This document shows positions 26,761-37,036 of a stretch of 64,000 bases of DNA, piece after piece. The stretch is taken from the NCBI GenBank assembly GCA_048937405.1, contig JBHLNF010000004.1:1-64000 (forward strand), read 5' to 3'. The position numbers and the translations under genes are program-made. Numbering within the stretch: position 1 is the first letter of the stretch; each line of letters begins with the position of its first letter. Source of the stretch: Promethearchaeota archaeon. GTDB taxonomy: Archaea > Asgardarchaeota > Lokiarchaeia > Sigyniarchaeales > SOKP01. Below the pieces are notes generated by a model. The model saw only the letters and a program-made list of their open reading frames with translations. It searched no databases and had not been told where the DNA came from.

Positions 26761-28965
26761 TCAGAGGATTTTTTTCAATTCTAAAATTAATGAGTTAGGG
26801 TTGTATTTGTTAAATTTATAAATCTGGGCATTAGCATATTTTTTAAAATTCTTTTTAATATGTTCTGCTGAATATGTATGGACACCTAGGGCGTGAGTAG
26901 CATAGGATTTTTTTGGTTCGAGTACAATCATATGGATATTTTGTTTTGATAATTTTTTGGTTAATTGCTTTAGTTCTCTCGTAATTAAAGTATAATCTGT
27001 TTCAATCTGAGCTATTAAATCAGGAAACTTTACAGAAATATTTGCTCCGCAATCACTACAGATAAAAACCACAGGTATAATATTTCGATCTTTTAATTTC
27101 TCAATTTTTATTAATTCGGATACTTTTTTTAATGCTGCTGCCATTGGTGTATATGATTTCCCCTCCAGTTTTTTCAACTTATTAACTGCCATTTTAAAAT
27201 TTACGGTAGGTTTTTGTAAAACAACTGCGTTTTTACCTCGAAAAACAATGAGCGCTATTTTATCTCTTTTTCTATATCCTTCTCTATGAAGTGATAAAAT
27301 TACATCAGTCATTTGTTTTATGACATAAAACATAGAGGCTGAACTATCTAATACAAAGAATAATGCTAGAGGAGCGCGATATTCATAAATCTTGTCCATT
27401 AAATCATATTTATTGAAATGTATAGGAAAATCGATTTCAGTTTCATTGTATACTATATTCTTAAGATAATTCCTAATAGTTGCATCTAAAGCAATAGATT
27501 TTGGCTGTTCACGTATGGGAGTTCTATATGAAACATATCTTCCCTTTTGTGATGATGATACTTTAATTCTTCTACCTATTCCTCTTCCTCCGTAATCAGA
27601 GATTTTTCGTTCTTTTCTAATATTATCCAAGATAGAGGTCATTTTTTTTTCCATTTTATAAATAAAGGGAAGTGAATCACTTTTTGCTTCAAAAAATCGA
27701 AGATCTTCATCAAAAGGAATATTTTTCACTTTCCAACCACCAGCGGGTTTAGGATTTCGTTTTCTATTATCAGGATATTTTGGAGGAGGTAATTTCTGTT
27801 CTTTTGTCTCTGGAATATCGACTTTTTCAGGATCAACAGATTGTCGTTTAAATTCCTTTTGAGAACTATCATCATGTTTTAAAGGTCCCTCGGTTTCTCT
27901 ATTTGGTTGAAGAACATCAGTATTTTCATACGCTTCTCTTATCTTTCCATAAACTTCAGCAATTTTAGCTTTTATTTCTTCAGGAATCATTTCATAATGG
28001 AGGGATTGAATTCTGTGTTCGAATACCAAATCCATTGCAACATTAAGGTCATCTTCGGTTATAGTTTTTCTATTATTTAATGCAGCATGAGCCCGAGCAC
28101 ATCTTATAAAAGTGATATCAGCTCGTTGAGAAAAAATTTCTAATTCATTTACTATTTTTGAAACAAATTCATAAACGGAACTAGGTATTTGGACATCTTT
28201 TAGAATTTGACGCGCATTCAAAATCTCCTGTCTCAGCTTTTCTTGTTCATTTTCAAAAGCTTTAATAAAGTCTTTTGGATGATCATCAAATTCAATAACC
28301 CTTTTTGTTATTTCAGCTCGTAATTCTGGATCTCTGGGAGCTTCTATTCTAACCTCTAAACCAAGTCGATCAGCAATTTGAGGTCTTAAGTCTCCTTCCT
28401 CGGGATTCATCGATCCAACTAATACAAATCTGGAAGGGTGTGATACAGAAATACCTTCTCTTTCAATAATATTTACTCCTGAAGCTGCAGAATCCAAAAG
28501 GACGTCAACTATATGATCTTGAAGAAGATTAATTTCATCTACGTAAAGAATACCTCGATTCGCCTTTGCTAATAAACCAGGATGCAAAGCTCTTATCCCT
28601 TCTGTAAGTACTTTTCCAATAGATAAGGATCCACATACCATATCTTCAGTAACACCAAGAGGTAGGTTAACTAACCACATATCCCTAAATTCAGTTCGAA
28701 TTTCATTATTTTCCCTTTTTTCTATACAATTTTGACACAAATCATCAATATCTGAATGAGGATCACATGAAAATTCACATCCAGTTATAACCTCGATTTG
28801 GGGCATTAGTTCTACAAGAGACCTTACAGCTGTACTTTTTCCCGTACCTTGTTCTCCTGTTAAGAGAATCCCGCCTATTTGAGGATCTATAACATTCAAA
28901 ATTAATCCCATTTTCATTTTTTCTTGACCAAGAATCGCTGTAAAGGGAAAATTTATTTTCTTCAT
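26761..28965 (-). CDS. Mg/Co-chelatase subunit I/D-like AAA+ ATPase with C-terminal vWA domain
   Basis: FPFTAILGQ, GEQGTGKST, PGLLAKANRGILYVDEINLL, SMNPEEG; Pro-rich linker; vWA MIDAS DSSAS. Confidence 0.9.
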   Translation of the reverse strand: MKKINFPFTAILGQEKMKMGLILNVIDPQIGGILLTGEQGTGKSTAVRSLVELMPQIEVITGCEFSCDPHSDIDDLCQNCIEKRENNEIRTEFRDMWLVNLPLGVTEDMVCGSLSIGKVLTEGIRALHPGLLAKANRGILYVDEINLLQDHIVDVLLDSAASGVNIIEREGISVSHPSRFVLVGSMNPEEGDLRPQIADRLGLEVRIEAPRDPELRAEITKRVIEFDDHPKDFIKAFENEQEKLRQEILNARQILKDVQIPSSVYEFVSKIVNELEIFSQRADITFIRCARAHAALNNRKTITEDDLNVAMDLVFEHRIQSLHYEMIPEEIKAKIAEVYGKIREAYENTDVLQPNRETEGPLKHDDSSQKEFKRQSVDPEKVDIPETKEQKLPPPKYPDNRKRNPKPAGGWKVKNIPFDEDLRFFEAKSDSLPFIYKMEKKMTSILDNIRKERKISDYGGRGIGRRIKVSSSQKGRYVSYRTPIREQPKSIALDATIRNYLKNIVYNETEIDFPIHFNKYDLMDKIYEYRAPLALFFVLDSSASMFYVIKQMTDVILSLHREGYRKRDKIALIVFRGKNAVVLQKPTVNFKMAVNKLKKLEGKSYTPMAAALKKVSELIKIEKLKDRNIIPVVFICSDCGANISVKFPDLIAQIETDYTLITRELKQLTKKLSKQNIHMIVLEPKKSYATHALGVHTYSAEHIKKNFKKYANAQIYKFNKYNPNSLILELKKIL

Positions 28966-29088: not shown

Positions 29089-30039
29089 TCAAAATCTCTT
29101 CTTAAGTTGCTTCAATCTTTTATCCAATCCAGAAACATGCTCATCCCATCTATTTATAATTTCTTCTATTTGAGGCATTAATACTTCTCTTTCTTTATAT
29201 TCTAAATAGTTCATAAATTCCTTGATATTTTCAATCTTCGCTAATGTTTCTGATACAAATTTTCGAATTTCTTTACTTTGATTTTCTAAGACTTCTGGAA
29301 TTCTTGATTTTTCTCCTCGATGAGTCAAGGTGGTTAAATATTCTTCAGTGCCAAGAAAGAGAGATTCATATTTTTCTATACGCTCATCAATAAATTTACT
29401 ATACGTGGCTGGTACATTATCTTTAGGAAAGAAATTAGTAACATCAATAATAAATTTCTGAGTTTGAGCAATTAATTGTTCCATACTTTCGTATCCCTCA
29501 ATTCTGTAATCTGTAGTATGATAGGAAGCCTCTACTCCAGAATTTACATCATCTAATCTGAATATTTTAAAACCAGGATCATTTTTTAATTGTATATCTG
29601 GATCTCCTTTTTTATTCGCAAGTTCAATCTGTCGTATTAATCTCGTTGGATTAAATACCAGAGAAATTGCTTTTGGATTATTTTGCTGATAAGATAGAGT
29701 TGTACGTATATCAATATGAGACATCATTACCTTAAAATCTGGATGGGAATGCCACCATCCTACTGTAAATTCACCTCGTTCAAAAGCTTCATCATCAATA
29801 ATACTTAGCGCAACATAATCCTCATCAGACCATTTATATTGATCAATTACAGCATCTTTATCCAATTCCTGATGCATAATAGGATATGTTTGTGTTATTA
29901 TTACATTATCCCCCTTATTCTTTCCTATGAAAATCCCACTCACTTCTAACCAATCATCTTTAGGAATACGAGCATTTGCGAATCTAACTGCAGCAGCTAC
30001 CACTGCCAGATAACATTGTTTAGGGATAATAACAACCAT
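29089..30039 (-). CDS. MPN+/JAMM metalloisopeptidase (Rpn11/CSN5-like) with helical C-terminus, paralogue 1
   Basis: LEVSG … GWWHSHPDFKVMMSHID = E…HxHx7Sx2D. Confidence 0.88.
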   Translation of the reverse strand: MVVIIPKQCYLAVVAAAVRFANARIPKDDWLEVSGIFIGKNKGDNVIITQTYPIMHQELDKDAVIDQYKWSDEDYVALSIIDDEAFERGEFTVGWWHSHPDFKVMMSHIDIRTTLSYQQNNPKAISLVFNPTRLIRQIELANKKGDPDIQLKNDPGFKIFRLDDVNSGVEASYHTTDYRIEGYESMEQLIAQTQKFIIDVTNFFPKDNVPATYSKFIDERIEKYESLFLGTEEYLTTLTHRGEKSRIPEVLENQSKEIRKFVSETLAKIENIKEFMNYLEYKEREVLMPQIEEIINRWDEHVSGLDKRLKQLKKRF

Positions 30040-30251
30040 AATAAAATCTTCTTTGAATTTTTTTTTTTTGAGGAAAATATTTGCAAATTTAATACAACTT
30101 TTTGTATTTATGCCTTTTGATCTAAATTTCTGAATTAAATTATTAAACTTACAGACAAATTTTTACATTAAATGAGAAATAATTTAAATTCAAAATTCAT
30201 CATTATAATAATACTGAAATCATATAATTTATAGTTGAATAGTGATTTAAA

Positions 30252-30899
30252 TTGACTGAAAAAGGCTTTATGCCCCTTACATCAGAGTTGGGAGTACCTG
30301 GTACAAGTTATAGAATCCAATTAGGAGATATCAATGAAAAATGGGCTGTACGTTTAATAAAAGGAAGAGATGTTATAGATTCTTATGTTTTCAAAGATGA
30401 AGATGTTGAGGGTGATTTCCCTAACCAAAACATAATCGTAGGATGGGTTCTTAGGACTGTGGCAATCCCTAATATTAACCCACATCAAATTATGAAAACA
30501 ACCCAAGCTCTTGTAAAACAGGCATTGAAGAGGAAGGAAGAAAGGAAAGTAATGGCTCCCGTATCAGAAACTAAACAAGTAGAATTAGAAAAGGTCCCAG
30601 AAAACCAATTGAAAAGACGTCAAGTTCAAGGTTGGGTTAAAGCAGAAGAAATGAAAAGTCAACAAGAACTTGAAGAAGAAAGAAGACAAGCATTTAAACA
30701 AACTGTCGCTGCTAGAAAAGCACAAGCCCAAGAATCAGGCTCAACAGTAAAGACGACAAGAAAATTACCTTCAATACCTAGTGCGGGTGGTGAAATGAAG
30801 GAATCTATAAGTAAGTCGAGTGAATTCTGCCCTTTTTGTGGAAAAGACTTAGGATTTAGGTTCTGTCCATATTGTGGAAAACCCTTAGCTCATGATTAA
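30252..30899 (+). CDS. Hypothetical protein with coiled region and C-terminal double Zn-ribbon
   Basis: CPFCGKDLGFRFCPYCG; TTG start after AGTGA. Confidence 0.8.
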   Translation: MTEKGFMPLTSELGVPGTSYRIQLGDINEKWAVRLIKGRDVIDSYVFKDEDVEGDFPNQNIIVGWVLRTVAIPNINPHQIMKTTQALVKQALKRKEERKVMAPVSETKQVELEKVPENQLKRRQVQGWVKAEEMKSQQELEEERRQAFKQTVAARKAQAQESGSTVKTTRKLPSIPSAGGEMKESISKSSEFCPFCGKDLGFRFCPYCGKPLAHD

Positions 30900-31075
30900 A
30901 AATTTAATACATTATTTCTATTTTTGATTTTATTTTTATTCGATAAAAATTCTATAAGAAAATGGATTTTAAAAATCAGATTTAAATTATATTCTTTTAT
31001 TCAAATATTTAAAACCAAATAAAATATATATATATCATTAACAAACTAAATCTAAAATATAAATCGTGATAGCAA

Positions 31076-32542
31076 GTGACATCTGTTATTATTAAGCCAG
31101 ATGCTTATTACAAAATGCTGGTGCATGTTCTCAGATTTGGGAATAAAGCAAGAGATCGTAAGCAGTTTAAAGAAGTAATGGGTATTTTAATAGGTAGATT
31201 AGAAGGTGAACCTGATAAAAAAGGAATAAGAGATGTTATCATTGAAGATGCTGTTCCTATTTCGCATGGTGGAGCAATTGAAGTTGCATTTGCCCCAGAA
31301 GATTATGTGACTTTTACTACAGTCGATACTGCTTTTGCGGAAAATAACTGGTTCAGTTGTGGATGGTATCATTCTCATCCTGGATTGGATATATTCTTTT
31401 CCTCTACTGATATTAGAAATCAATTGGGATGGCAAACTCCAAATCCAAGTGCAGTTGGAATTGTATTTGATCATACCCATTTGGAAAAACCTGGAGATTT
31501 AGGATTTCGGACATTTAGATTAGATAATCCAGCAAAAGGTCAAATGTCTGGTTATCATGAAGTAGCATCAAAGGTAGAACCTCCAGATAGCATCCAGTAT
31601 TATATAAAATTAATAGAATTAATTAATTGTATTCATTCAAAAGAACCTCCGATTCTAGAAATTAATGAAATGCCTGATTTATTTGGTGACATAACATTCC
31701 CCAGTGAAAGTCAAATTATAGCAAAAAAACCAGAATTGAATTCTCTAATGATTTTATCTTCTCTTAAAACAGCTTTGATAAAATATATGGAATCATCAAT
31801 TGATCCATTAATTTCAGTTCTTAATTCTTGGAGTGATGGCATTGTAAGGAAAACTGTTGAAAATAATTTACAAATGAGAAAAGATATGATTACTATAAAA
31901 AACAATCTTAGCGAAGGGATTTTAACACTTCAAAAAGACTTCAAATTCTCGATTAAGGAAAAATTGAATGAATTAGATATGTATATAGATGACAAATTTG
32001 AAGAATTTGATTCATATCAAGAATTTTTTAATGAATTATTTGACAATATTAAAACCGAAGTTAATAGTCAATTTATTTTATTGATAGAAAAAAAAATTGA
32101 AAAAAGTTTTGATATAATTTTAGCACAACTAAACAAACAAATAGAAGAACTTGTTAATATCAATAAAAGGGCAATTCAAGCTTCTGAAACTTTAAATCAA
32201 CAGAATTCCATGTTAGAAAGCATATTTAATAATATCAATTCAATTGAGGTATTAGTTGCAGATAAATTAAATAAGAATTTTGGAGATTTATCCGAAAATT
32301 TCACAAAAAATGCAAATAAAATTATTGGTAATTTTATAAATTCAAATAAAGAGACTAAAAGTTTTCTATCAAATTTAAAAGCAGCTATTATTTTACTAGA
32401 GAGCTCAAAAACTCCTATTCAAAATAAATTGGAAACACAGGAAATTGAAATGAAAACTCTTCAAAAAAGTATAATAGAATTAAAAAAGGAGAATAAGGAT
32501 CTACTTATAAAAATAGAAAAATTGCAGAAAAAAGAGGATTAA
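31076..32542 (+). CDS. MPN+/JAMM protein with long coiled-coil C-terminus, paralogue 2
   Basis: YYKMLVH…KEVMG … GWYHSHPGLDIFFSSTDIRNQ; about 250-aa heptad-rich tail. Confidence 0.9.
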   Translation: MTSVIIKPDAYYKMLVHVLRFGNKARDRKQFKEVMGILIGRLEGEPDKKGIRDVIIEDAVPISHGGAIEVAFAPEDYVTFTTVDTAFAENNWFSCGWYHSHPGLDIFFSSTDIRNQLGWQTPNPSAVGIVFDHTHLEKPGDLGFRTFRLDNPAKGQMSGYHEVASKVEPPDSIQYYIKLIELINCIHSKEPPILEINEMPDLFGDITFPSESQIIAKKPELNSLMILSSLKTALIKYMESSIDPLISVLNSWSDGIVRKTVENNLQMRKDMITIKNNLSEGILTLQKDFKFSIKEKLNELDMYIDDKFEEFDSYQEFFNELFDNIKTEVNSQFILLIEKKIEKSFDIILAQLNKQIEELVNINKRAIQASETLNQQNSMLESIFNNINSIEVLVADKLNKNFGDLSENFTKNANKIIGNFINSNKETKSFLSNLKAAIILLESSKTPIQNKLETQEIEMKTLQKSIIELKKENKDLLIKIEKLQKKED

Positions 32543-32548
32543 ATAAAA

Positions 32549-33916
32549 ATGGAGTATACAGAACAAAAAGAAAGTAATATTAATGGAAAGATATTCATTA
32601 AAAAAGAAGCTTTTAGAAATATGGTAACTCATGTATTACGATTTGGTAATGAAGCTTTAGAGCAAAGCGTAGAGGTAATGGGAGTTTGTCTGGGAGAATA
32701 TGATTCTAAAGAAGATAAAGTTATTGTGGAAAATGCAGTTCCATTATCCCATGGTGATAAAGTAGAGATTGGCTTTGATAAAGATGTTTATGATTTATTT
32801 ATCGAGATTGGAAATAAATATTCATCAGATTTAATAGGATATTATCACTCTCACCCTTCATGGGGTTTATATCTATCAGAAAGTGACTTAAATAATTTGA
32901 AATATTTTCAGGGAGAGAAATTTCCCCATGGATTTGCTATTGTATTTGATCATACACTTATGGGGAAAGAGGAAAAACTTGGATTTGATATTTATAGATT
33001 GGATGATTATTCTAAAGCTGAAAATTATCATAGTGTACCATTTGAAATTGAAAAACCCACCTCATTAGAGTATTTTAAATGGGTTCAAAAATTTTCAGAA
33101 GATATCGAGAAAATGAATCCTATTCTTATTAAAGAAGTAAATGAATTTGTTGAGACTCCTCCGGGAGATTTACAAGAAATCCCTGTAACTGAAGAACCAT
33201 TAGTTATTAGTGAAGAATTAAGAGATTCTACGCAAGTTGAGGCAATTATTTCAGGTATTCAACAAGGAGCTGAAAGTTTCTCTCAAGAGATTACAGATAT
33301 GATGAAAAATCAAATCGAAGGTTGGATTGATGACATGAATCAAGGAACATCTAAAGGGACTGATTATATAGCTAAAGCACTGAGTAAAATGAAAGAAGCG
33401 TTATCTTCTGGACTTCAAAAAGTAGATAATTGGTTTAAGAGGACTCTAGATGAGAGAGTATATCAATTTAAAAAAAGTGTTTCTAAATATGTTGATACTC
33501 GGATTGAAGCTAATAAAGAACTAACTCAAAACACTAATAAATTAAAAGATAGCCTAATTGAAGATCTAAAAACATCAGTTGAAAATAATTTAGGAAATAT
33601 TAATAAGGAGTTGGAAACCTTAGGAAATTCCATATCTGAAAAAGCGGAGGAAAACAAGAAAATAATATCACAAATTGAAGAACTAATAAATAATTATAAA
33701 ATAGCAATAGAAAATTCAGATAAACAGATTAATATATTGACTGAAAATATTGATAAAAAGATAGAAACTCCACTTAACTCCTTTAAAAAAAACCTTGATG
33801 AGAAGATCGAAAAATTAAATGCGGAACTAACTCCTTTTAAAGATAATAATTCAGAGATAAAAGTATTACTTGAAAAACTCCAAAAAATAATTACTGGCTT
33901 TCGAAGTTTAAGTTAA
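32549..33916 (+). CDS. MPN+/JAMM protein with long coiled-coil C-terminus, paralogue 3
   Basis: FRNMVTH…VEVMG … GYYHSHPSWGLYLSESD; 6 bp after paralogue 2. Confidence 0.9.
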   Translation: MEYTEQKESNINGKIFIKKEAFRNMVTHVLRFGNEALEQSVEVMGVCLGEYDSKEDKVIVENAVPLSHGDKVEIGFDKDVYDLFIEIGNKYSSDLIGYYHSHPSWGLYLSESDLNNLKYFQGEKFPHGFAIVFDHTLMGKEEKLGFDIYRLDDYSKAENYHSVPFEIEKPTSLEYFKWVQKFSEDIEKMNPILIKEVNEFVETPPGDLQEIPVTEEPLVISEELRDSTQVEAIISGIQQGAESFSQEITDMMKNQIEGWIDDMNQGTSKGTDYIAKALSKMKEALSSGLQKVDNWFKRTLDERVYQFKKSVSKYVDTRIEANKELTQNTNKLKDSLIEDLKTSVENNLGNINKELETLGNSISEKAEENKKIISQIEELINNYKIAIENSDKQINILTENIDKKIETPLNSFKKNLDEKIEKLNAELTPFKDNNSEIKVLLEKLQKIITGFRSLS

Positions 33917-33923
33917 AGAAAAT

Positions 33924-34202
33924 TTAAAAGAATCGTAAAGTTGAAACCTTTGTTATCTGTAATTTATACTTCGGAATATTAGTATTAAGCCTCTTTAATT
34001 CATTCAACGTCGCTATCTTACTTAAAACTCTACCAATTTTATCAACTTTTATGTTTATTCCAAAATTTTCCCGAAGAACAGAATTTATTTTATAGGAGGA
34101 TAAAATTACTGTTTGAGATATATTTCTATCAGCAAGTAACTCTATAGCCTTTTTTACTAAATTAATCAGGCGTTCTTTGCTTTCGGGTTGTTTTACTTCC
34201 AT
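33924..34202 (-). CDS. Small basic hypothetical protein, possibly winged-helix
   Basis: 92 aa; helix-SSYKI-helix-VDKIGRVLS-helix followed by beta-like tail. Confidence 0.6.
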   Translation of the reverse strand: MEVKQPESKERLINLVKKAIELLADRNISQTVILSSYKINSVLRENFGINIKVDKIGRVLSKIATLNELKRLNTNIPKYKLQITKVSTLRFF

Positions 34203-34624: not shown

Positions 34625-37036
34625 ATGTCTGGTCAACAATCTGATTCTTCAAAAAGGTCAAATAGTTCTAAAGCGAGAAGTAGGAGTAAAAGTGAAAGCT
34701 TAATCTCTAGGCAAAAACTAAAATTTTTTGCTTTAAAATCAAACCTTAAGAGTCATATTTACGATAAAATAATTCATCAAGAGGTTTATATAGATGGTAA
34801 AGAACCTAAATCATATTCTTTTGGGAAAAAGTTTTATGGACTATATATAATATTTCTTTTTTATTCTCTACTTTTGATTTTAAAAGTAAACTTTCCAAAA
34901 ATAGAGGAACTTAACATCTTTATGCTTGGATTACCCTTCGAATTTTCAAATACTATTTTAGCTTTTTTTCTGGTTTTATCATTTTTACTTAGTGTTGATA
35001 GAGTAAGAATCTTTATTTTCGAAAAGCATACGATTGTTAAACAATTTGTAATATTTAGTGTTTTATTTACAATTCTATTTCTCCTTTTTTTGTATATAGG
35101 AACAAGTGTAAACTTTATAACATATTTATTAGTATTATCGATGATTTGGTTGATTCTATTAAGTTCTAGATTCTATATTTATTCCAGAAAATTTTCAACA
35201 AAAATTGAAGCAAGATTCATTAAACGATATTCCATACCAAGGTATATCTTTGCCGTTCTAACTCCTTTTGTAATCTTAACTGTGCTTATTTTAATTTCAT
35301 TATTTTATCGAAGTTTTTTAGTAGTATTATCCCTAGATTTCTTCGCACATGGGGATCCAAGCAATGCTGCCGATGTTTACGAATTGGAAATGACAAGTCT
35401 TATGCCATTGATTTACTTTAGTCTAGTTATGACATTAGTTTTTATAATCTTTGAGTATGTGTCGACTAGACGAAAAGCTGAAACTAAAAGAGTAGGGACT
35501 TTTGATAATTTTACATTTTCATTAATTGTTTTCTTCATCTTTTTCTTTCAAATCCTACAAATAACTATCTTTTTATTTCTGCGAGATGAAACCATAACTG
35601 CATTCAAATCAACGTTAGGTCAAGCAGGCTCTTTTGCTTCTTATATTTTTATATTCGAGTTTATGATATCAATGTTTTTTTTATATCGTATTGTTAAAAA
35701 ACTCGGTGCATCACTTGGATGGCGTATTTTTGTATTCAAAAAGGATGGCTTAATTCTTCTATGTTTAGCTTGCGTTTTTGCTCAAACATTAACACGCTTC
35801 GCACTTGCAACCAATATACCGAATCAAAAAGTTATCGATATAGGGATAATTTTTATGTGGGATAAATTAATTGTTTCTGTACTTATGATATTTTTTTTAG
35901 GTACTACCCTTTTAATCTATTATATAAGACCTCATGAAACATCTATGTTTATGAGATTACAAAAAGAAACTGTTAGTGAAGAAGAAAGAAGCCTGGATAA
36001 AGTATATAAAATTATAAGGAGTGAATACATAAGAAGGGGTGAAGCCTATCCTATTGAAATAATTGAACGTGAATTAATTAAAGCTACTCAGCATTCTAGG
36101 GCCAAAGTTTATGAGCATATTGAACAATTAGCAAAGAAAGATATGGACATTATAATAAAAGTGAAGAAAGAAAAATCAGGAAGAACACTAAAGATGATTG
36201 ATTTCACGTCAGTTACAGAAGTATTTGAGAAAAAGGAGGTTGCTCAACAGAAAGCTAGACAATATCTAAGTGAAAGAATATACCAAAGAGCATTGGAAGG
36301 GGAGAGTAAGACTAGTAGGTTAGTTAAAAGAGAAGAAGAAGGTGAAGCCGCAAACGGTTTTATATCCTCTCTTTCTGCTGGATATAATAAAAAACAACGT
36401 GCTAAAGCATTACATAAAAAAAAATTAGAGGAGACTCAGTTAACTTTTACAACTGAAGAATTGGCTGTCGATTTAGAAACTCAAATCATCAATATAATAA
36501 AAGAGGAATATATATATAGAATTGAAAATCCTGAAAAATTTCCAGAATTCTACATTCCAATTTCTGAAATTTCAACCCAGATTGAGCGTAAAACTAAAAT
36601 TTCACCTGGAGAATTATATCCTCTTTTAGAAGATCTTAGCCAAAGTGATATGGAGTATTCACTACTCGATAATCCTAAAGATCCTGAAGATAAATTAATA
36701 AAAATCCTTCCTTTCTCTGATGAGAATATGTGCTTTACATTAGCTAATTTTAGACCTGAAGAATACTCCGAACTTAAAAAAATTATGGTCAAGAACTTTT
36801 TAAAATTTATCAAAGCTAAAAAAGAGAAAAAAGTTATTTTCAAATTGAAAAAGGGAATACTAAATCAAACAGAAACTCAAAAATCTTGGTTAGAAATACT
36901 CAATAATTTATATAAATATTATCCTATATATAAAGAACAAATTACTCGAGTTCCAGACACTAAGAAGTTAATAATGCAATTAGAAAAGTGGTATATAGCT
37001 ATTAAACAGAGGCAAAGTATAACCCAAAAGGAATAA
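34625..37036 (+). CDS. Large polytopic membrane protein with duplicated cytoplasmic (winged-helix-like) domain
   Basis: Ser/Arg-rich N-terminus, about 10 hydrophobic helices, then repeats IIRSEYIRR…VYEHIEQLAKKDMD and IIKEEYIYR…LYPLLEDLSQSDME. Confidence 0.75.
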   Translation: MSGQQSDSSKRSNSSKARSRSKSESLISRQKLKFFALKSNLKSHIYDKIIHQEVYIDGKEPKSYSFGKKFYGLYIIFLFYSLLLILKVNFPKIEELNIFMLGLPFEFSNTILAFFLVLSFLLSVDRVRIFIFEKHTIVKQFVIFSVLFTILFLLFLYIGTSVNFITYLLVLSMIWLILLSSRFYIYSRKFSTKIEARFIKRYSIPRYIFAVLTPFVILTVLILISLFYRSFLVVLSLDFFAHGDPSNAADVYELEMTSLMPLIYFSLVMTLVFIIFEYVSTRRKAETKRVGTFDNFTFSLIVFFIFFFQILQITIFLFLRDETITAFKSTLGQAGSFASYIFIFEFMISMFFLYRIVKKLGASLGWRIFVFKKDGLILLCLACVFAQTLTRFALATNIPNQKVIDIGIIFMWDKLIVSVLMIFFLGTTLLIYYIRPHETSMFMRLQKETVSEEERSLDKVYKIIRSEYIRRGEAYPIEIIERELIKATQHSRAKVYEHIEQLAKKDMDIIIKVKKEKSGRTLKMIDFTSVTEVFEKKEVAQQKARQYLSERIYQRALEGESKTSRLVKREEEGEAANGFISSLSAGYNKKQRAKALHKKKLEETQLTFTTEELAVDLETQIINIIKEEYIYRIENPEKFPEFYIPISEISTQIERKTKISPGELYPLLEDLSQSDMEYSLLDNPKDPEDKLIKILPFSDENMCFTLANFRPEEYSELKKIMVKNFLKFIKAKKEKKVIFKLKKGILNQTETQKSWLEILNNLYKYYPIYKEQITRVPDTKKLIMQLEKWYIAIKQRQSITQKE

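Follow-up and report, generated by a model that had tools for sequence, protein, structure and literature searches.

A tandem pair of long-tailed MPN+/JAMM proteins in one family of Lokiarchaeia: a predicted heterodimer whose second subunit may be becoming a pseudoenzyme

Introduction

To our knowledge, the JAMM deubiquitinases of eukaryotes almost always consist of an active subunit and a dead paralogue, and we know the origin of this active/dead MPN design only from ancient, finished examples. Rpn11-Rpn8 and CSN5-CSN6 follow such an MPN+/MPN- logic. In BRCC36-Abraxas and BRCC36-KIAA0157 (ABRO1), which form the core of BRCA1-A and BRISC, the MPN domain continues directly into a long C-terminal helix and the partner of the active subunit is a paralogue able to be catalytically dead (PMC4579573). 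In archaea, an MPN+ enzyme acting on ubiquitin has been described in Caldiarchaeum subterraneum, namely the Rpn11-like deubiquitinase CsRpn11 (PMC6043591). Here, we analyze a stretch of 64,000 nucleotides (hereafter the window; positions 1 to 64,000 of contig JBHLNF010000004.1, assembly GCA_048937405.1) from a promethearchaeote of the class Lokiarchaeia, in which three genes for MPN+/JAMM proteins, named A, B and C, occupy positions 29089-33916 together with a gene for a zinc-ribbon protein, Zn. The genome of this Asgard archaeon is 4.47 Mb long, has a G+C content of ~28% and is rated 100% complete.

An initial annotation of this DNA, made from the sequence alone, had suggested that A, B and C may form one hetero-oligomer. 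We favour, with moderate confidence, a different reading in which B and C form an MPN heterodimer that is specific to the family and evolved independently, B being the enzyme and C a partner drifting towards a pseudoenzyme, while A would be separate. In what follows, f1 stands for the GTDB family of the host and f2 for its sister family; C7, C17, C18 and C28 are contigs of the host, the window belonging to C17, and L- and G-numbers denote sampled loci and genomes.

Like BRCC36, B passes directly from its MPN domain to a long C-terminal helix. The tails of B and C are however 4-5 times longer than in BRCC36-Abraxas, with a hydrophobic period of 3.62-3.64, the putative partner C is still MPN+ in the host, the closest paralogue of B is C and vice versa, the profiles of both match catalytic subunits only, and the pair would have originated independently within one archaeal family. 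Neither BRCC45-like nor MERIT40-like partners were identified for B-C. With Rpn11-Rpn8 and CSN5-CSN6 the pair would share the MPN+/MPN- logic and, in our model, an interface made of the N-terminal and post-MPN helices of both chains. It differs from them by a block without PCI scaffold genes and by very long tails in place of a short C-terminal helical bundle, and its proteins are not orthologues of Rpn8 or CSN6. The best match among PDB sequences is CsRpn11 (6fjv/6fju), with E values of 3e-10 for B alone and 5e-13 for the B profile. Unlike A, B and C, CsRpn11 and the JAB proteins of Asgard operons are short, single-domain proteins encoded inside a ubiquitin-E1-E2-RING operon, and the host's own JAB of the CsRpn11 type, on contig C7, belongs to a different clade.

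Results

A (29089-30039, minus strand) codes for an MPN+ protein of 316 residues with a helical tail of 130 residues, B (31076-32542, plus strand) for an MPN+ protein of 488 residues that starts at a GTG codon, and C (32549-33916, plus strand) for an MPN protein of 455 residues whose tail spans ~231 residues. Against Pfam JAB (PF01398; cut-off 22.5 bits), they score 51.9, 42.8 and 40.9 bits, with E values of 8e-14, 5e-11 and 2e-10, respectively. In the host genome, all three possess an intact H-x-H-x7-S-x2-D zinc site and, upstream of it, the catalytic Glu within EV(S/M)G. The JAMM motif reads HSHPDFKVMMSHID in A (29710-29751, minus strand), HSHPGLDIFFSSTD in B (31370-31411, plus strand) and HSHPSWGLYLSESD in C (32846-32887, plus strand). 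Further downstream, the blocks VF(N/D), GF..(F/Y)RLD and YH are invariant columns of the alignment of the three proteins, whose pairwise identity is 24-27%. The initial annotation was borne out on the coordinates, motifs and JAB character of these genes, on the EV(M/S)G context with its common downstream blocks, and on the 6 bp between two of them: 6 nucleotides separate the stop codon of B from the start codon of C on the same strand, and both genes are probably co-transcribed. Judging from their sequences, the three proteins would have the zinc-dependent isopeptidase activity of JAMM/MPN+ enzymes.

The three zinc sites have had very different fates. The five residues of the site (EHHSD) are kept by A in 120/120 homologues and by B in 114/117, the other three being deprived of the N-terminal part only, with HHSD intact. 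In contrast, C keeps them in 71 of 119 homologues, and the 48 others have lost zinc-site residues; 15 motif states were found in all, of which 14 are degenerate (EIRTT, ESHSA, ELHSG and ESHSE, for example). When losses were counted by parsimony on a C gene tree built with the motif columns removed, 5 changes were obtained, of which supported branches impose at least 4, and the site would have disappeared at least 4-5 separate times. An intact B lies beside a degenerate C in single genomes (L002, L003, L054 and L017), L017 coming from a species of the window's own genus, and the C orthologues devoid of a zinc site stay full-length. The idea that all subunits retain their catalytic residues, put forward in the initial annotation, thus holds for the host genome, where C is EHHSD and not an MPN- protein, and fails for the family, in which the site of C was lost whereas those of A and B never were.

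A complex between B (residues 1-330) and C (residues 1-335) was modelled in three runs, each chain having its own alignment. The interaction prediction score from aligned errors (ipSAE) reached 0.75, 0.75 and 0.73 against 0.00 for the best control, the pairs B-B, C-C, A-B and A-C not being among the controls. At least 91% of the contacts are common to the runs, with a predicted local distance difference test (pLDDT) score of at least 70 for the partner, and the pass mark of the test is one that 58 of 80 solved complexes reach, as do 2 of 110 mismatched pairs. The predicted interface is pseudo-twofold and associates residues 8-26 and 169-192 of B with residues 22-37 and 167-193 of C; in both chains, these segments are the N-terminal helix and the helix that follows the MPN domain. 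At the level of the model, B and C are two MPN paralogues joined through the helices flanking the MPN fold, in a way that may resemble the helical interface of Rpn8-Rpn11. In C, conservation amounts to 0.80 at the predicted interface versus 0.69 in the remaining MPN domain, and the interface is conserved alike in orthologues with and without a zinc site, which we count as independent support for the pairing. The hetero-oligomeric assembly of the initial annotation can be retained for B with C, which combine sister paralogy, tandem synteny and a model above its controls; nothing ties A in, and the AlphaFold-type check that the pair passes covers B with C alone.

Alternatively, B and C could be unpaired and work as independent enzymes or homodimers, their tandem being a relic of duplication and the losses in C those of a redundant enzyme. 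Homodimeric MPN enzymes do exist, and insect BRCC36 alone forms inactive homodimers. Moreover, both motifs are intact in the host, and closely related proteins frequently pass such a test of complex formation. However, the zinc-less C proteins are kept full-length, with a tail of fixed length and an interface as conserved as in the intact ones, which would not be expected of a decaying redundant enzyme, and a C homologue is found directly beside B in all 24 related loci examined. An absence of pairing seems unlikely to us.

The AlphaFold2 model of B (pLDDT 72.6) comprises the MPN domain (residues 1-186), a linker (187-222) and two helical segments (223-303 and 311-486). Foldseek places BRCC36 at the top (6gvw_B and 6h3c_B), with 304-310 columns covering the MPN domain and the helix, followed by Rpn11, CsRpn11, eIF3h and CSN5, and the MPN fold of B matches structures of the Rpn11/CSN5 type with template modelling scores of 0.64-0.72 normalised to the target. 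The tails were compared in 40 B/C pairs, matched through the length of the longest contig of each. In 39 of them the C tail measures 230-233 residues, and 226 in the other (standard deviation 1.1), despite an identity of ~46% to the protein of the window; the B tail mostly measures 262-270 residues. That the length is fixed while the sequence drifts suggests that the tail serves structurally, as a ruler. The tail lengths of B and C are correlated (Pearson r 0.54), but C barely varies and the relatives are not independent, so that we discounted this correlation as evidence that the tails zip together. In the family profiles, the hydrophobic period of the tails stands out well above shuffled sequences and differs from 3.5. 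The long tails noticed in the initial annotation are indeed helical, and they are not heptad coiled coils.

This period is one of the arguments that could be given for a pair acting mainly as a structural or membrane element, in which amphipathic tails would coat a lipid or membrane, possibly with the polytopic membrane protein encoded nearby, and the MPN heads would act on a non-ubiquitin substrate or be a mere dimerisation knob. The tails also match the profiles of apolipoprotein A-IV, apolipoprotein A-I and apolipophorin-III (E values of 1e-4 to 3e-8), the polytopic protein is a conserved neighbour, and the locus has no linked gene for a ubiquitin-like protein. On the other hand, the apolipoprotein matches may reflect composition, the membrane protein lies far from A in f2, and the catalytic site of B is invariant in its homologues, which argues that catalysis matters. 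We regard a mainly structural pair as quite improbable.

The linkers between the MPN domains and the tails are predicted to be disordered and are nearly invariant. That of B (residues 187-222; 31634-31741, plus strand) has the pattern EPPILEINE...FG...P, also seen as EPPILEINE..D.FG, and that of C (residues 189-212; 33113-33184, plus strand) the pattern PILIKE.NE...LQEIP. They may constitute a docking motif for a further partner.

JAB genes are present in 68/68 f1 genomes, with 2-10 copies and mostly 4-8, as compared with 2-4 in f2 and mostly 1-4 in other Asgard families. Full-length B orthologues were found in 66 of the 68 f1 genomes, in all nine genera and with identities down to 38%, and in one of seven f2 genomes. 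In two other families of the class, the matches of B are confined to the MPN domain, and no B orthologue was found in 26 families searched outside the class. The B-C pair is restricted to essentially one family of Lokiarchaeia. The initial annotation had also envisaged that the cluster could result from a recent lineage-specific duplication; the low identity between A, B and C and the divergence of the B orthologues speak against it.

In 13 loci from eight genera and metagenomes, the genes follow each other in the same order: a chelatase-like gene and A on the minus strand, Zn, B and C on the plus strand, a gene for a basic protein of 92 residues on the minus strand and the gene for the polytopic membrane protein, of 803 residues, on the plus strand. 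The core from Zn to the membrane protein is retained wherever the contigs extend far enough (13 loci), the 92-residue gene having the same position in 9/13. In the window, this small gene (33924-34202, minus strand) is convergent with C at a distance of 7 nucleotides, and its product has no Pfam match; the membrane protein (34625-37036, plus strand) is a conserved neighbour in f1. Compared with the window, the proteins of the related loci are 47-65% identical for the membrane protein, 60-71% for the 92-residue protein, 49-65% for Zn, 60-64% for A, 39-69% for B and 29-57% for C.

A has a wider distribution, with orthologues in 59/61 f1 genomes and 12/14 f2 genomes and an identity of 39-43% over the full length. 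In f2, where B and C are missing, A keeps its head-to-head arrangement with a homologue of Zn, and the homologue of the membrane protein is unlinked, 30-150 kb from A. The fact that A and Zn stay paired in f2 without B-C indicates that A-Zn is an old unit and B-C an addition of f1. A would be a separate, older, order-wide MPN+ enzyme that is not part of the B-C pair, and it appears to be functionally tied to Zn, as judged from their gene neighbourhood. Among the four genes of the block delineated by the initial annotation, Zn, B and C are kept together across the f1 loci; A is sometimes distant, and in f2 it is accompanied by Zn alone. These data bear on the assembly proposed in that annotation, in which A, B and C, perhaps with Zn, would be a single hetero-oligomer with every MPN subunit active. 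In its favor, the three motifs are intact in the host, A is located ~1 kb from B in the window and within 1-20 kb of B-C in most f1 genomes, and Zn, which sits between A and B, is linked to A order-wide and to B-C in f1. However, A is older than B-C and exists in their absence, it is not adjacent to them in some genomes (L001, for example, or G147 and G040, where it is 11-20 kb off), and the repeated loss of the C site indicates that selection does not maintain a design with all sites active. Very little weight can be given to this assembly, and we come back to a B-C heterodimer independent of A.

To examine the relationships between these proteins, a tree of 52 MPN domains was built, without eukaryotic sequences and with supports from the Shimodaira-Hasegawa approximate likelihood ratio test (SH-aLRT). 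A, B, C and two other long MPN proteins of the host, encoded on contigs C18 and C28, form one long-tailed clade (SH-aLRT 98), within which B groups with C as its sister clade (SH-aLRT 96), with a stem length of 0.65 for C versus 0.30 for B. The short JABs, including that of the host's ubiquitin operon on C7, fall outside this clade. In PDB sequence searches, the B and C family profiles match CsRpn11, Rpn11, CSN5, BRCC36 and AMSH at similar scores, and neither matches any MPN- subunit. The confinement to one family, together with profile matches to catalytic MPN+ proteins only, points to a parallel invention rather than to a forerunner of Rpn11-Rpn8, CSN5-CSN6 or BRCC36-Abraxas; the sequences do not suggest a common descent of B and C with the inactive partners Rpn8, CSN6, eIF3f/h and Abraxas.

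Both additional paralogues of the long-tailed clade are MPN+ proteins. The first one (C18:22059-23645, plus strand) has a tail of ~280 residues that looks TPR-like by eye, and a weak match to a PCI-like winged helix occurs 2 kb from it (C18:25540-25692, E value 0.006). The second one (C28:361578-362753, minus strand) has a coiled-coil tail.

Other family assignments were considered. A PCI-MPN complex such as the lid, CSN or eIF3 was rejected, since the seven proteins of the block gave no PCI match and the PCI-like matches of the genome are all on other contigs. Against Prok-JAB (PF14464; cut-off 25 bits), B and C score 24.0 and 19.8 bits, and A passes with 28.2 bits, but matches JAB better (51.9 bits). 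The desampylase model NF041370 yields only 19-22 bits with the three proteins, versus a cut-off of 130. A defence system was also discarded, JABs of the CBASS/Bil type included, as PADLOC gives just generic JAB matches and coiled-coil noise (ZorA, LmuB tails). Finally, an Rfam scan of the window gave no family match.

The window contains no ubiquitin, E1 or E2 gene, in agreement with the initial annotation, and such machinery sits on another contig. A complete ubiquitin operon of the Caldiarchaeum/Asgard type is found on contig C7 (333646-337206, minus strand; L077:3647-7207, minus strand), with, in a row, genes for a RING protein of 79 residues, ubiquitin (an open reading frame of 112 residues), a ThiF E1 of 423 residues, a UQ_con E2 of 175 residues and a short Rpn11-like JAB (an open reading frame of 284 residues). 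At least two further ubiquitin-like matches occur elsewhere in the genome. The presence of this operon implies, as far as gene content can tell, that ubiquitin conjugates exist in the organism.

The Zn gene (30252-30899, plus strand) codes for 215 residues. It is divergent from A, head-to-head with it across the order, and precedes B-C on their strand, with a gap of 176 nucleotides before B. The alignment of 27 orthologues reveals a near-invariant N-terminal domain (residues 1-100), a charged linker and a single C-terminal ribbon with the pattern CPxCG-x7-CPxCG. The matches to Pfam Zn_Ribbon_1 and DZR are under the cut-off, and the double zinc ribbon of the initial annotation has to be corrected to one. 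The N-terminal 100 residues are almost unchanged across genera, as in TVAIPNINPHQIMKTTQ, and have no match to a known fold or family: the best structural hit was a de novo designed protein (Z 6.6), followed by PH/EVH1-like folds (Z 4-5), all in the noise range.

On the other side of A, a gene for a ChlI/ChlD-like AAA+ and VWA protein of 734 residues (26761-28965, minus strand) adjoins it in 7/13 loci. This protein scores 594 bits against TIGR02442, below the cut-off, and the large subunit CobN/ChlH (PF02514) was not found in the genome despite its rated completeness. A role as cobalt or magnesium chelatase is doubtful, and the protein would rather be an orphan chelatase-like ATPase.

An unexpected feature was observed in A orthologues from five species that belong to the same genus as the host (G049, G189, G192, G213 and G243), where an insert of 31-32 nucleotides interrupts the JAMM motif (L080:342-413 and L081:350-421, plus strand; L072:978-1049, L073:936-1007 and L082:720-791, minus strand; homologous to 29710-29751 of the window, minus strand). 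Located between the codons for HSHPGF and KVMMSHID, it holds a stop codon and shifts the frame. Its consensus fold is a textbook bulge-helix-bulge, with an exon-exon helix, a 3-nucleotide bulge, a 4-bp helix, a 3-nucleotide bulge on the opposite strand and an inner hairpin, and of the pairs, 24 of which are predicted, 7 are affected by compensatory changes. The frame is recovered (...GFKVMM) if each bulge is cut after its second nucleotide. We regard the insert as a candidate for an intron spliced by an endonuclease within a protein-coding gene of Asgard archaea. Introns of this type have been published for crenarchaeal cbf5 (PMC2738675), and our search of the literature found none reported for Asgard mRNAs.

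Discussion

Our preferred reading, the B-C heterodimer, could be detailed as follows. B and C would have been born in a single family of Lokiarchaeia, through a tandem duplication, and would associate through a four-helix interface, to which each chain contributes its N-terminal helix and its post-MPN helix. B would be the obligatory zinc isopeptidase and C chiefly a structural or regulatory partner, with a zinc site that is intact in the host yet dispensable in evolution. The fixed-length tails (~231 residues in C and ~266 in B), with their nearly straight hydrophobic stripe, would each measure ~35 nm if folded as one straight helix, and could join by zipping into a stalk, or else cover a surface in the manner of apolipoproteins. 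As substrates, we consider conjugates or precursors from the host's own ubiquitin system, encoded by the C7 operon, to be the most likely. A would act apart, as an older enzyme working with the zinc-ribbon protein.

Several points weigh against this proposal. The C protein of the host keeps every catalytic residue and may be a second active enzyme there. The binding of C to B rests on a structure model, whose controls did not include the homotypic and A-containing pairs mentioned above, and whose success may reflect a likeness to solved MPN heterodimers rather than binding. Concerning the locus, co-transcription of Zn with B-C across their intergenic gap is hypothetical, and the synteny with the 92-residue and membrane proteins may be an inherited gene order, not a shared function. 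Furthermore, no gene for ubiquitin or a ubiquitin-like protein is linked to A, B and C, and the ubiquitin operon carries its own JAB.

One could also go further and assume that Zn, B, C, the 92-residue protein and the membrane protein are the components of one membrane-anchored machine, with a deubiquitinase head borne on or along a stalk of fixed length, ~35 nm long. This would be an independent archaeal counterpart of the eukaryotic MPN complexes, with a second subunit that is becoming a pseudoenzyme. Such a machine is speculative and, in our opinion, rather unlikely. If it were true, the birth of an enzyme/pseudoenzyme pair would be experimentally tractable across living species.

We found no published description of the B-C family or pair in the literature, nor of the block that the initial annotation had outlined. 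The active/dead pair design seems to be emerging independently within a single Asgard family, and living species hold both states of C beside an invariant B, thereby offering natural orthologue pairs that can be compared stepwise. The ubiquitin-type machinery of Asgard archaea would have diversified well beyond the single operon-encoded JAB, and the eukaryote-like features of these organisms can have been invented in parallel and need not be ancestral.

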